Both the position numbers and the translations under genes were made by a program. Shown in pieces: positions 1 through 4,104 of a stretch of 4,104 nucleotides of DNA. The notes below the pieces were generated by a model. That model was not told where the DNA came from. It saw only the letters and a program-made list of their open reading frames with translations, and ran no database searches. This DNA is from a virus. Taxonomy: Duplodnaviria; Heunggongvirae; Uroviricota; Caudoviricetes. Within the stretch, counting starts at the first letter, position 1. The number at the start of each line of letters is the position of its first letter. The stretch is taken from IMG/VR virus record IMGVR_UViG_2740892423_000013, one strand, 5' to 3'.

Positions 1-485
1 CGCTGCCTGCGTTGCTCTGGCAGCACCGCATGGATGAGCCCATCGGTGTGTACACCGAAATGAAAGAAGATGATGTCGGGCTTTATGTCAGGGGGCGATT
101 ACTCGTTGATGATGATCCCCTGGCAAAACGTGCACATGCCCATATGAAGGCCGGTTCTTTAACCGGCCTTTCTATTGGCTACATCCTGAAAGACTGGGAG
201 TACGACCGTGAAAAAGGGGTATTCCTGCTGAAAGAGATCGACCTGTGGGAGGTCAGTCTGGTGACGTTTCCTTCCAATGATGAGGCACGCATCAGCGATG
301 TGAAAAATGCGCTGGCGCGTGGGGAGATCCCTGATCAGAAAATTATTGAGCGAGTCCTGCGCGATGTTGGACTCTCGCGAACCCAGGCCAAAGCATTCAT
401 GGCCGGGGGATATGGCGCTTTATCCCTGCGTGATGCTGAGGATGTGGATGCCGCACTGAATGCACTGAAAAATCTTAAATTTTAA
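1..485 (+). CDS. HK97-family prohead maturation protease, C-terminal portion; 5' end lies upstream of the window
   Basis: Open frame runs from the window edge (first full codon at 3) to TAA at 483-485; the ORF-track start at 12 is a TTG inside the open frame. Translation contains a motif typical of HK97-type prohead proteases (LWEVSLVTFPSNDEARI). Position immediately upstream of the capsid gene matches the usual protease-MCP order. Family assignment by eye, not by search. Confidence 0.75.
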   Translation, partial: LPALLWQHRMDEPIGVYTEMKEDDVGLYVRGRLLVDDDPLAKRAHAHMKAGSLTGLSIGYILKDWEYDREKGVFLLKEIDLWEVSLVTFPSNDEARISDVKNALARGEIPDQKIIERVLRDVGLSRTQAKAFMAGGYGALSLRDAEDVDAALNALKNLKF

Positions 486-487
486 CC

Positions 488-492
488 AGGAG
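488..492 (+). promoter_or_regulatory. Shine-Dalgarno (AGGAG) for the major capsid gene
   Basis: AGGAG at 488-492, 7 nt upstream of ATG 500-502, in the 14-nt spacer after the protease stop. Confidence 0.7.
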
Positions 493-499
493 AAAAATA

Positions 500-1494
500 A
501 TGGCTGACATTAAAGATGTGGAGCAGGTCGCGCAGGAGCTGCAGCAGAAGTTTGACGATTTTAAGGCAAAAAACGACAAGCGCATTGACGCGATCGAACA
601 GGAAAAAGGCAAGCTGGCCGAACAGGTGGAAAGCCTGAACGGGCAAATCAGCGAGCTGGAGAACCTGAAAAGCGACCTGGAAAAAGAGCTGGCAGACATC
701 AAGCGTCCGGCAGGCGGCACGCAAAATAAAGTTGCCAGTGAACACAAAGAAGCGTTTATCGGATTTATGCGCAAGGGGCGTGAAGACGGCCTGCGTGAGC
801 TGGAGCGTAAGGCGCTGCAGGTGGGCAATGATGAAGATGGCGGTTATGCCATTCCGGAAGAACTGGATCGCACCATTCTGACGCTACTAAAAGATGAGGT
901 GGTGATGCGCCAGGAAGCCACTGTGATCACCCTCGGGGGCTCGGATTATAAAAAACTGGTGAATCTGGGCGGCACAACGTCCGGATGGGTGGGGGAAACG
1001 GATGCACGTCCGGAAACCGCCACCTCAAAACTGGGGCTGATTGAACCCTTTATGGGGGAAATCTACGGCAACCCGCAGGCCACCCAGAAAATGCTCGATG
1101 ACGCTTTCTTCAATGTGGAAGACTGGATCAACAGTGAGCTGGCGCTGGAATTTGCCGAACAGGAAGAAATTGCCTTTACCAGTGGCGACGGCAGCAAAAA
1201 ACCAAAAGGTTTTCTGGCTTATGAGTCCACCGATGAAGATGACAAGACCCGTGCGTTTGGCAAACTTCAGCACATCGCTTCCGGCGCGGCTTCCGGCGTG
1301 ACCGCTGATGCGATCATTAAACTGATTTACACCCTGCGCAAGGCGCACCGCAGCGGCGCGAAGTTTATGATGAACAACAGCAGCCTGTTTGCCATTCGTT
1401 TGCTGAAGGATAACGACGGAAATTATCTGTGGCGTCCGGGTATTGAGCTGGGTCAGCCTTCTTCTCTGGCAGGGTATGGCATCGTTGAGAATGA
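500..1494 (+). CDS. Major capsid protein, HK97 fold, with N-terminal coiled-coil delta domain; allele A, codons 1-332 only, 3' end cut by N-gap
   Basis: ATG at 500 with SD. N-terminal ~100 aa are rich in E/K/L heptad-like repeats (delta domain). The core carries HK97-capsid-like motifs (GGYAIPEEL; EFAEQEEIAFTSGDGSKKPKGFL). The frame runs straight into the N-run at 1495, so the ORF-track extension to 1531 is a chimera. Confidence 0.85.
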
Positions 1495-1504
1495 NNNNNN
1501 NNNN
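1495..1504. other. 10-N scaffold gap / assembly join
   Basis: Run of exactly 10 N. Sequence to the right restarts at about codon 34 of the same gene rather than continuing codon 333. Confidence 0.95.
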
Positions 1505-2630
1505 GCAGGAAAAGGGAAAACTTGCTGGTGAAGTGGAAACCCTCAACGGAAAACTGGCTGAACTGGAAAATCTGAAAAGCGATCTTGAAGCTGAACTGGC
1601 TGAAGTCAAGCGTCCGGCAGGCGGCACGCAAAATAAAGTTGCCGGTGAACATAAAGAAGCGTTTATCGGATTTATGCGCAAGGGGCGTGAAGACGGCCTG
1701 CGTGAGCTTGAGCGTAAGGCGATGCAGGTGGGCAATGATGAAGATGGTGGTTATGCCATTCCGGAAGAACTGGACCGCACCATTCTGACGCTGCTGAAAG
1801 ATGAGGTGGTGATGCGCCAGGAAGCCACTGTGATCACCCTCGGTGGCTCGGATTATAAAAAACTGGTGAATCTGGGCGGCACAACGTCCGGATGGGTGGG
1901 GGAAACGGATGCACGTCCGGAAACCGCCACCTCAAAACTGGGGCTGATTGAACCCTTTATGGGGGAAATCTACGGCAACCCGCAGGCCACCCAGAAAATG
2001 CTCGATGACGCTTTCTTCAATGTGGAAGACTGGATCAACAGTGAGCTGGCGCTGGAATTTGCCGAACAGGAAGAAATTGCCTTTACCAGTGGCGACGGCA
2101 GCAAAAAACCAAAAGGTTTTCTGGCTTACGAGTCCACCGATGAAGATGACAAGACCCGTGCGTTTGGCAAACTTCAGCACATTGCTTCCGGTGCGGCTTC
2201 CGGCGTGACTGCCGATGCGATCATTAAACTGATTTACACCCTGCGCAAGGCGCACCGCAGCGGCGCGAAGTTCATGATGAACAACAGCAGCCTGTTTGCC
2301 ATTCGTCTGCTGAAGGATAACGACGGAAATTATCTGTGGCGTCCGGGTATTGAGCTGGGTCAGCCTTCTTCTCTGGCAGGGTATGGCATCGTTGAGAATG
2401 AACAGATGCCGGATATTGCTGCCGATGCAAAAGCCATTGCGTTTGGTAACTTCAAACGTGGCTATACCATCGTTGATCGCATCGGTACCCGTATCCTGCG
2501 CGATCCGTACACCAATAAACCGTTTGTGGGTTTTTATACCACCAAGCGAACCGGCGGTATGCTGGTGGATTCTCAGGCGATTAAGCTGATGAAAATTGGG
2601 GCTGCAACCCGCCAGAAAGCCGCTGCGTAA
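1505..2630 (+). CDS. Major capsid protein, allele B, 5'-truncated by the gap (about codon 34 to stop)
   Basis: First full codon CAG at 1506; in frame to TAA at 2628-2630. Collinear with allele A over about 300 codons and supplies the C-terminal ~75 codons missing from A. The track's N-terminus 'MSWVSLLLWQGMASLRM' (1443-1494) is the tail of allele A read out of frame, not real. Confidence 0.85.
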
Positions 2631-2641
2631 TGCGGTTTTTT

Positions 2642-3074: not shown

Positions 3075-3084
3075 NNNNNNNNNN
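3075..3084. other. 10-N scaffold gap / assembly join
   Basis: Run of exactly 10 N. Sequence to the right is the 3' end of an MCP gene, not a continuation of the connector. Confidence 0.95.
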
Positions 3085-3256
3085 CGGCTATACCATCGTT
3101 GACCGCATCGGTACCCGTATCCTGCGCGATCCGTACACCAACAAACCGTTTGTGGGTTTTTATACCACCAAGCGAACCGGCGGTATGCTGGTGGATTCTC
3201 AGGCGATTAAGCTGATGAAAATTGGGGCTGCAACCCGCCAGAAAGCCGCTGCGTAA
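3085..3256 (+). CDS. Major capsid protein, allele C, C-terminal fragment (last ~57 codons)
   Basis: First full codon at 3086; translates GYTIVDRIGTRILRDPYTNKPFVGFYTTKRTGGMLVDSQAIKLMKIGAATRQKAAA then TAA 3254-3256. Same protein as the allele B C-terminus, with two synonymous differences (gaccgc vs gatcgc; aacaaa vs aataaa). The track ORF 2979-3215 covers this in a wrong frame and across a gap. Confidence 0.8.
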
Positions 3257-3267
3257 TGCGGTTTTTT

Positions 3268-3291
3268 TGTGCCCGCGTAATGGCGGGCACA
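3268..3291 (+). promoter_or_regulatory. Third copy of the intergenic hairpin (loop GTAATG)
   Basis: TGTGCCCGC (3268-3276), loop GTAATG, GCGGGCACA (3283-3291). T7 tract immediately 5'; AGGAGG at 3291-3296 immediately 3'. Confidence 0.6.
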
Positions 3292-3301
3292 GGAGGAAAA
3301 T

Positions 3302-3625
3302 ATGCTCCTGAAAGAAGAGGAAATTAAATCTCACCTCCGGCTCGATGATGGTTTGTACAGTGACGGCGATTTTCTGAAATTGCTGGCACAGGCGGTACAG
3401 AAAAGAACAGAGACATACCTGAACAGGAAGTTGTATGCACCGGAAGAGACGATTCCGGAAGACGATCCTGACGGGATGCATCTGACTGATGATGTTCGTC
3501 TGGCAATGCTGATGCTGGTCAGTCATTTTTATGAAAATCGCTCAACGATCACCGATGTGGAGAAACTGGAAACGCCAATGAGTTTCAGATGGCTTGCTGG
3601 CCCTTACAGGATTGTCCCGCTATGA
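3302..3625 (+). CDS. gp6-like head-tail connector protein, complete (107 aa)
   Basis: ATG 3302 is 5 nt after AGGAGG; stop TGA at 3623-3625. Small acidic protein directly after the MCP gene, the position gp6 occupies in HK97-type head modules. Family assignment from position and size, not a search. Confidence 0.8.
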   Translation: MLLKEEEIKSHLRLDDGLYSDGDFLKLLAQAVQKRTETYLNRKLYAPEETIPEDDPDGMHLTDDVRLAMLMLVSHFYENRSTITDVEKLETPMSFRWLAGPYRIVPL

Positions 3626-4038
3626 AAATCAGGCAAAGTCAGACCAGTGCCACTTACCTTTTACCGGATCCCGGAGAGCTGAATCGCCGGATAAAGATCC
3701 GCCTTCGGGTGGATGAACCCACCGCTGATTTTGGTACGGAGCCGACATATACGGAGTCGTTTGATGTCTGGGCAAAGGTGGCTCAGCCAGGCGCTGCTGC
3801 TTATCAGGGCTCAGTGCAGACAGAAAATATCGTTACGCATTATTTTACGATCCGTTTCCGTCACGACATCACGGCAGATCATGAGGTGGTTTATTACGGT
3901 CAGGAGTACCGGATCCGGCGAATACGCGACCTGAACGGTCAGCGGCGTTTTTTATTGCTGGAATGTGAAGAACTGCGTACAGCGCGACGACGGGGTGAAT
4001 GCCATGAATCAGACAGCATTTTTACACGTCGACTTTAA
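3622..4038 (+). CDS. Head-closure / head-tail joining protein (HK97 gp7-like), about 138 aa
   Basis: ATG 3622-3624 overlaps the connector stop TGA 3623-3625 (ATGA overlap). Translation MKIRQSQTSATYLLPDPGELNRRIKIRLR...YRIRRIRDLNGQRRFLLLECEEL resembles this family's pattern. Stop TAA at 4036-4038. An in-frame ATG at 3589 is possible but would overlap the connector by 37 nt. Confidence 0.7.
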   Translation: MKIRQSQTSATYLLPDPGELNRRIKIRLRVDEPTADFGTEPTYTESFDVWAKVAQPGAAAYQGSVQTENIVTHYFTIRFRHDITADHEVVYYGQEYRIRRIRDLNGQRRFLLLECEELRTARRRGECHESDSIFTRRL

Positions 4039-4104
4039 ACAACCAAAGGAGCTGGAGTTTAATCGCGCCCGTCTGCGTCGGGCATTTGTGCAGATCGGGC
4101 GCGT
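4004..4104 (+). CDS. Start of next phage structural gene (possibly neck/tail-completion, HK97 gp8/gp10-like); 3' end beyond window
   Basis: ATG 4004 with a weak purine-rich tract (GGGGTG, 3992-3997) upstream. Open to the window end, translating MNQTAFLHVDFKQPKELEFNRARLRRAFVQIGR. It is in the +1 frame relative to the head-closure gene and overlaps it by 35 nt. Not in the ORF track because it is incomplete. Product call is positional inference only. Confidence 0.4.
   Translation, partial: MNQTAFLHVDFKQPKELEFNRARLRRAFVQIGR

Follow-up and report, generated by a model that had tools for sequence, protein, structure and literature searches.

The stretch of DNA analysed here (the window, 4,104 nucleotides) is the entire NCBI record JRGD01000189.1 (4,104 bp), which belongs to the Escherichia coli draft assembly GCA_000754845.1. 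It carries phage head-module genes, and three N-runs, each of exactly 10 N, divide it into four blocks. The identities of the module genes were taken from the precomputed Pfam matches on the genes of the record and from the gene order in relatives. As written, the window contains parts of the major capsid protein (MCP) gene three times, and parts of the head-tail connector gene three times. An earlier note on this DNA had described the three 10-N runs and the four content-overlapping blocks, with block 1 ending at MCP codon 332 and block 2 restarting at about codon 34. The coordinates and the pairwise comparison of the blocks bear this out, with the MCP start at 500 and the restart at codon 33/34.

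Table. Blocks, gaps, genes and elements of the window
Feature	Position	Strand	Remarks
Blocks 1, 2, 3 and 4	1..1494; 1505..2955; 2966..3074; 3085..4104		Block 3, 109 bp
HK97-family prohead protease (Peptidase_S78), 3' part	1..485	+	Gene call and Pfam PF04586; cut by record start; opens block 1
MCP allele A, codons 1-332	500..1494	+	Block 1; ends 94 nt past last difference from block 2 (1400)
Gap 1	1495..1504	.	10-N placeholder
MCP allele B, codon 33/34 to stop	1505..2630	+	First base is first difference from allele A (598 A vs 1505 G)
Two adjacent hairpins, MCP/connector intergenic	2615..2666	+	Predicted fold -32.4 kcal/mol, z = -4.4
Head-tail connector, Ile allele, codons 1-93	2676..2955	+	Truncated at block 2 end, 94 nt past last difference from block 4 (2861)
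Gap 2	2956..2965	.	10-N placeholder
Block 3, putative orphan bubble branch, 109 nt	2966..3074	+	Second hairpin with loop variant T (2980), and connector start
Gap 3	3075..3084	.	10-N placeholder
MCP gene 3' end, allele C, last 56 codons	3085..3256	+	First base differs from block 2 (3085 C vs 2459 T)
Two-hairpin element, second full copy	3241..3292	+	Identical to 2615-2666
Complete head-tail connector, 107 aa, Met allele	3302..3625	+	PF05135
Head-closure protein, 138 aa	3622..4038	+	PF05521; start overlaps connector stop (ATGA)
Next gene, 5' part (174 aa in relatives)	4004..4104	+	Layout in relatives; cut by record end

The matching E. coli genomes annotate the protease gene as HK97 family phage prohead protease. 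MCP allele A shares 99.1% identity with a prophage of E. coli MEI7BO1-21, and allele B shares 98.3% identity with phiP27. The allele C fragment is RefSeq entry WP_072015483.1, titled "phage major capsid protein, partial [Escherichia coli]". Thousands of E. coli contigs encode exactly the same protein as the Met-allele connector, in every case with one copy per module.

In the first of the two predicted hairpins (2615-2640), the MCP stop codon lies in the loop and a T7 run stands at the end. This hairpin is terminator-like, with a terminator-like match at 2622-2636. The second hairpin (2641-2666) is G+C-rich and adjoins the AGGAGG ribosome-binding site. Block 3 opens on an additional T, the 8th of the T-run (7 T in blocks 2 and 4), and its last base lies 94 nt past the loop T. 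The loop-T variant was found in six natural contigs; in every one of them the run has 8 T and block 3 is matched over 109/109 positions. The possibility that block 3 is a sequencing-error branch at the hairpin was rejected, because the same 109-nt 8-T sequence is found in these six independent contigs.

The redundancy of the blocks is far above chance (BLAST E-values 0 to 1e-55), and the copies are not identical. Block 1 (598-1494) and block 2 (1505-2401) align without gaps and differ at 47 of 897 positions. Between block 2 (2459-2955) and block 4 (3085-3581) there are 8 mismatches, counting the first base of block 4. Block 3 has one mismatch each with block 2 (2642-2750) and block 4 (3268-3376), at 2980 (T vs G). 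Such allele-specific differences between sibling blocks, here at 47, 8 and 1 sites, are a mark of false duplication. The Ile/Met difference between the connectors, pointed out earlier, is present (2852 T vs 3478 G). The MCP 3' ends of blocks 2 and 4 had been said to differ by two synonymous changes; the changes are indeed synonymous, but they number three (2459/3085, 2477/3103 and 2516/3142).

When placed on phiP27 (locus L001), the four blocks tile with overlap, covering 1905-3397, 2501-3952, 3639-3747 and 3455-4475, respectively. A de-duplicated sequence Y was composed of 1-597, block 2 and 3582-4104; its 2,571 nt align as a single uninterrupted match to the finished E. coli genomes STEC384 and STEC379, at 99.7% identity. 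For sequence X, composed of block 1, 2402-2458 and block 4, the best finished-genome match is also in one piece, but reaches just 98.3%, so that joining block 1 to block 4 in one phase is an assumption. After de-duplication, but not in the window as written, the genes follow the HK97-type head-module order: S78 protease, HK97-fold MCP, Phage_connect_1 and Phage_HCP. Each of 25 related loci contains one copy of the module (25/25), and ten Mb-scale contigs carry the portal, protease, MCP, connector and head-closure genes once each. The better assemblies, which are from other strains, thus hold the module in single copy, as is typical of a false duplication, and the 99.7% match agrees with this. 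The exact junction of the block 1 end, 10 N and the block 2 start had no match in the viral, genome and metagenome contig collections, while the junction pattern does match the N-run within the window itself. The pattern of the block 2 start had no match in the genome contig collection.

Finished single chromosomes with two modules, some 0.9–1 Mb apart, also exist. GCA_036681055.1 has modules at 2.63 and 3.63 Mb, and STEC316 has two modules 880 kb apart, with 67 differing sites and one indel between them. The STEC316 indel falls in the T-run noted above, and the differing sites are concentrated in the patch where those between blocks 1 and 2 also lie.

The block boundaries follow a strict rule. 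The blocks preceding the N-runs end exactly 94 nt after the last sibling difference (1400 to 1494, 2861 to 2955, and 2980 to 3074), blocks 2 and 4 open on a mismatching base, and block 3 opens on the extra T described above. We reconstructed three alleles (X, Y and Z) and simulated from them a de Bruijn graph with k = 95, counting k-mers as nodes; its branch points coincide with 6 of the 6 inner boundaries. This coincidence of breakpoints with graph branch points is another sign of false duplication. The pieces had been thought to be truncated at arbitrary codons, which does not hold: the cuts lie exactly at the k = 95 branch points, and this is positive evidence for an assembler origin, stronger than the N-runs per se. 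In general terms, a block ends k-1 bases past the last variant and the next block opens on its first variant, and this rule provides a cheap, read-free test for stacked-allele artefacts in old short-read scaffolds.

At the outer ends of the record, the situation is mixed. The base following the record end is polymorphic (C in 13 and T in 10 of 23 related loci). At the left end, 22 relatives share one and the same upstream base; no polymorphism was found there, and a T-run or A-run length variant behind this end is therefore unsupported. Blocks 1, 2 and 4 traverse allele-identical stretches of 285 or 238 nt. Accordingly, the plain-unitig model was rejected, and the blocks are better described as repeat-threaded paths that end at branch points. 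One shared stretch of 152 nt, unlike those of 285 and 238 nt, was left unthreaded.

Velvet presumably inserts a minimum gap of 10 N and drops the first k-1 bases of the following node, which fits the record. Our searches of the literature on JRGD00000000, GCA_000754845 and neighbouring accessions found nothing relevant on the assembler, and those for a statement of the Velvet 10-N minimum gap found nothing usable. The attribution to a Velvet-like assembler is thus tentative.

We propose that the window is very probably an assembly artefact, in which near-identical copies of a phiP27-like head module were stacked in series with N spacers, rather than a real gene array. The tiling, the single-copy relatives, the one-piece 99.7% match and the two-module chromosomes all support the view, already put forward in the earlier note, of a gapped scaffold built from redundant, non-identical head-module pieces that stem from two or three related prophages or strains.

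The artefact may have arisen in the following manner. The source strain or culture would contain phiP27-like prophages whose head modules, two or three in number, are nearly identical. In the k = 95 de Bruijn graph of a short-read assembler, common stretches of these modules would alternate with branches specific to single alleles. Unable to place the branches in parallel, the scaffolder would set them out serially, with minimum-size 10-N placeholders between them. The series would begin with the MCP 5' part of allele A (block 1), proceed through the allele B MCP into the connector (block 2) and the leftover hairpin branch (block 3), and finish with block 4, which carries the other MCP 3'-end allele, the connector and the genes downstream. 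Each prophage itself would then carry the usual order of protease, MCP, two hairpins, connector and head-closure protein, in single copy.

Where do the alleles come from? Most likely, a single genome contains two or three paralogous prophages that supplied them. The same artefact could instead have formed from a mixed culture or a contaminated library, with two or three E. coli strains contributing one phiP27-like prophage each, as strain variants would leave an identical graph signature and the module is common among E. coli strains (1,103 of 5,426 complete genomes). Nevertheless, we consider this source rather unlikely. A strain mixture predicts bubbles genome-wide and not in the prophage only (one contig of the assembly was covered here), and the finished single genomes with two modules reproduce the pattern, including the patch dense in differences and the indel at the T-run, so that no mixture is needed.

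Another possibility is that a person or a tool concatenated the pieces after assembly, by reference-guided ordering or assembly merging, with fixed 10-N spacers and no paired-end scaffolder. The spacer size is constant, and the midpoints of successive blocks lie progressively further along phiP27, as this would predict. However, the missing k-1 prefix of the following blocks and their start exactly on the variant base, which resemble an assembler-internal representation of nodes, would be left unaccounted for, and such concatenation is quite improbable. On this reading, too, the record would be an artefact, and the consequences would not differ.

A real but degenerate tandem rearrangement, with adjacent partial MCP and connector duplications in one prophage and the N-runs as small gaps, is hardly tenable: the blocks do share one scaffold and one orientation, in an order that rises roughly along the module, but all three junctions are N-runs (0/3 have a sequenced join), true recombination joins would not be expected to coincide with k = 95 branch points as all six inner boundaries do, the record is a 4.1-kb orphan contig, and no duplication was seen in any related locus or finished genome examined, in agreement with the earlier judgement that a true tandem array is less likely. 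The partial-copy arrangement itself did not recur in the 25 related loci and the ten long contigs. Equally hard to credit is its more elaborate version, a decaying phiP27-like prophage that acquired nested partial MCP-connector duplications by recombination with co-resident related prophages, with N-runs hiding short true junctions.

The significance of the stacked-module reading is practical only: chimeric and partial gene calls from a public record sit in databases. The gene calls run straight across the N-runs of the record. Among the artefactual calls are a "capsid" ORF of 343 aa that ends in an artificial XXXX-AGKGKTCW tail, an ORF of 379 aa whose start lies at a gap, a truncated connector of 100 aa, and the 56-aa partial MCP mentioned above. 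In an exact look-up, the products of the two N-spanning ORFs were not present as such in the protein collection. The apparent duplications and truncated genes of the window are ordinary assembly artefacts and not a real feature, and any capsid or connector gene count, or any claim of fusion, truncation or "duplication", drawn from this contig would be false. The earlier warning that gene-count, fusion and duplication claims are unsafe here is thus shared by us.

Multi-copy prophages break contigs in short-read E. coli assemblies, and the usual outcome is collapsed single contigs. The record resembles such repeat-induced breaks, as it is a short orphan contig of sequence common to several prophages and ends where the copies diverge, but here the branches are also strung together with N spacers. 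Among known phages, blocks 2-4 are 98.2-98.6% identical to the Stx2e phage phiP27 (NC_003356). After de-duplication, the window has its genes in the order seen in phiP27 and the phiP27-like prophages (protease, MCP, connector, head-closure protein), and in the relatives the contractile-tail module then follows. In contrast to the threefold MCP and connector parts of the window, every gene is present once in phiP27 and all of the relatives.

A close parallel is found in false heterotype duplications (Ko et al. 2022, Genome Biol 23:205, PMC9516828), whose listed signs include assembly gaps that separate the copies within a single scaffold. In the window, such gaps are present at 3 of the 3 junctions. 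The likeness also includes slightly divergent versions placed serially on one scaffold, allele-specific k-mers and false extra or partial genes; the comparison covers the gap and allele criteria, among those of the paper that also include read depth and read pairs. The difference is in the source of the copies: there, they are the haplotypes of diploid vertebrates, while the present copies most likely stem from paralogous prophages of a haploid bacterium, with a strain mixture as the less likely source.

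The window carries three runs of exactly ten N each (1495–1504, 2956–2965, and 3075–3084), and the block alignments confirm that the four blocks between them are redundant in content, as the earlier note had claimed. Block 1 (598–1494) aligns gap-free with block 2 (1505–2401), with 47 mismatches in 897 positions, while block 2 (2459–2955) and block 4 (3085–3581) differ at 8 positions, including the first base of block 4. Block 3 shows a single mismatch, at 2980, to both 2642–2750 in block 2 and 3268–3376 in block 4. The gene content and codon limits proposed for each block from the sequence agree with the ORFs and gene calls. 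The differences between the major capsid protein (MCP) genes of blocks 2 and 4 are indeed synonymous, but they occupy three sites, rather than the two first counted.

Features of the window, with positions on the whole stretch
Feature	Position	Content	Basis
Block 1	1–1494	3′ part of the S78 prohead protease gene; MCP codons 1–332	ORFs, gene calls
Block 2	1505–2955	MCP codon 33/34 to stop codon; intergenic hairpin region; connector codons 1–93	ORFs, gene calls
Block 3	2966–3074 (109 nt)	Second hairpin; connector start	ORFs, gene calls
Block 4	3085–4104	Last 56 MCP codons; hairpins; complete 107-aa connector; 138-aa head-closure protein; start of next gene	ORFs, gene calls
Chimeric or partial calls	497–1531, 1491–2630, 2676–2978, 3085–3256		Public gene calls
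Two-hairpin element	2615–2666 and 3241–3292; partial copy 2966–2989	Conserved, MCP–connector intergenic

Where do the blocks begin and end? The right ends of blocks 1, 2, and 3 each lie exactly 94 nt past the last difference from the sibling block (1400 to 1494, 2861 to 2955, and 2980 to 3074, respectively). The first bases of blocks 2 and 4 are themselves mismatches to the sibling (G at 1505 versus A at 598, and C at 3085 versus T at 2459). Block 3 begins with the final T of the T-run located 3′ of the MCP stop codon, and the prediction that its allele has one T more than the seven of blocks 2 and 4 was borne out in natural contigs, in which the run length is 7 or 8. The loop-T variant of block 3 is present in six IMG/VR contigs, all six with 8 T and identical to block 3 at 109 of 109 bases. 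Therefore, the start of block 3 also coincides with its first allele-specific base, and the block represents a real allele, which rules out a sequencing error.

A node-centred de Bruijn graph with k = 95 was computed from three reconstructed, de-duplicated alleles: X (block 1, 2402–2458, and block 4), Y (1–597, block 2, and 3582–4104), and Z (Y with block 3 inserted). Its branch points at 597/598, 1494, 1551/1552, 1735/1736, 1844, and 2048 are the six inner block boundaries. Since only about ten of the 2,571 positions in each allele are branch points, the probability of a chance coincidence is negligible. This agreement is new evidence, beyond what the earlier note had observed. The record's right end (4104) is one base short of a polymorphic site (C in 13 related loci, T in 10), and a graph path would be expected to stop at this end. 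The left end (position 1) is separated by two bases from an A7 run (…gaaaaaaagg, then CGCTG, in the relatives); unlike the other seven ends, it is not accounted for by a known polymorphism, and the base preceding it is invariant in 22 related loci.

The blocks have a full k−1 tail on the right and no k−1 prefix on the left. This asymmetry and the minimum gap of ten N would fit the node representation and scaffolder of Velvet; a literature search found no confirmation of this attribution. The blocks extend through stretches of 285 and 238 nt shared between alleles, which rules out plain unitigs; rather, they are repeat-threaded paths with branch points at their ends.

How is the module organized in its relatives? 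Blocks 2–4 are 98.2–98.6% identical to the Stx2e phage phiP27, and block 1 shares 96.1% identity with phiP27 and 99.1% with a prophage of E. coli MEI7BO1-21. On the phiP27 locus (L001), the four blocks fall on overlapping ranges (1905–3397, 2501–3952, 3639–3747, and 3455–4475) of a single head module, in which every gene is present once. The single-copy arrangement recurs in ten Mb-scale E. coli contigs that encode exactly the window's connector protein: one gene each for the portal, the protease (216 aa), the MCP (407/408 aa), the connector (107 aa), and the head-closure protein (138 aa), with a contractile-tail module behind them. The de-duplicated sequence has one match in each of the 25 related loci examined. 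Allele Y has one-piece matches in two finished E. coli chromosomes, those of STEC384 and STEC379 (99.7% over all 2,571 nt), and a gap-free match in an IMG/VR contig (99.5%); allele X matches finished genomes in one piece, at up to 98.3%. Hence, joining the pieces as the artefact model implies gives back a normal, contiguous module.

Together, the branch-point boundaries, the single-copy relatives, and the normal de-duplicated sequence support the earlier description of a gapped scaffold of redundant, non-identical head-module pieces, and the feature is almost certainly an assembly artefact. A true tandem array had been considered less likely, and this judgment stands: no sequenced junction between copies was found at the N-runs of the window or by junction pattern in viral, genome, and metagenome contigs, and no recurrence was found among the 25 related loci and the ten Mb-scale contigs.

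The module is found in 1,103 of 5,426 complete E. coli genomes, in up to four places per genome. On the GCA_036681055.1 chromosome, two phiP27-like prophages lie at 2.63 and 3.63 Mb; their identity is 99% over 13.7 kb and complete across the window's range. The finished STEC316 chromosome has two modules, 880 kb apart, that differ at 67 of 2,573 sites and by one indel. This indel is at the T-run, the differences cluster at 582–702, the same MCP N-terminal patch as in blocks 1 and 2, and the copies have identical runs of 95–878 nt in common. A mixed culture is a possible source of the alleles; we prefer paralogous prophages in one genome, since a STEC316-type pair is the input that would yield the inferred graph. 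The alleles may number three, or two with blocks 2 and 4 threaded through the same hairpin branch and block 3 left over.

The window is identical to NCBI JRGD01000189.1 of GCA_000754845.1, the single record retrieved by an exact look-up of an N-spanning ORF product, and RefSeq lists the 56-aa MCP fragment of block 4, from a 4,104-bp contig, under WP_072015483.1 with the name “phage major capsid protein, partial [Escherichia coli]”. Therefore, the window amounts to one complete, small contig record from an E. coli draft assembly; no publication on the GCA_000754845.1 submission was found in the literature. The public gene calls on this record cross or begin at the N-runs, and their products are chimeric or partial (343 aa ending in XXXX-AGKGKTCW, 379 aa, 100 aa, and the fragment WP_072015483.1). 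Such bad gene calls in public databases are the sole consequence of the artefact, and the stacked alleles are of low biological interest.

Between MCP alleles A (block 1) and B (block 2), 31 of the 47 differences lie within one 101-nt patch (598–698 versus 1505–1605; MCP codons 34–67). This patch lies in the N-terminal coiled-coil region of the MCP and accounts for 9 amino-acid changes; the remaining gene is almost identical. The patch resembles a recurrent recombination cassette. The closest relative of block 1 (L002, NZ_CM149560.1 2016989–2025482; 99.1%) combines the same protease and MCP with another connector and with genes of the non-contractile-tail type (HK97-gp10 family protein, gp17 tail completion protein, and tail assembly chaperone); in the relatives of blocks 2 and 4, the tail is contractile, with a sheath, a tube, and a Mu-like baseplate. 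The similarity of L002 to the window extends as far as the T-run, about 10 nt past the MCP stop codon and just 5′ of the second hairpin. Given this end point and the different downstream gene set, the intergenic hairpin region looks like a module-exchange boundary. At another locus (L019; GCA_036681055.1, JAQMUM010000001.1, 3626017–3646340 reversed), positions 1–6655, 5′ of one phiP27-like module, hold a second, different capsid–protease–portal–HNH–terminase set and a split large-terminase gene, which suggests two tandem prophages or one prophage inserted into another.

The two-hairpin element folds at −32.4 kcal/mol (z = −4.4), and the motif GCGTAATG(C/G)CGG is common to both hairpins. The first, terminator-like hairpin contains the MCP stop codon within its loop and ends in the T-run (7 or 8 T in natural alleles). 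The second, which is G+C-rich, lies directly 3′ of the first and abuts the AGGAGG site of the connector gene; the natural G-to-T loop variant (2980) makes its stem longer. This element probably governs the ratio of MCP to connector expression.

Among described phenomena, the closest is false heterotype duplication in diploid assemblies; its listed hallmarks include gaps that separate the copies within a single scaffold, as well as allele-specific k-mers (PMC9516828). The window shares both of these with it.
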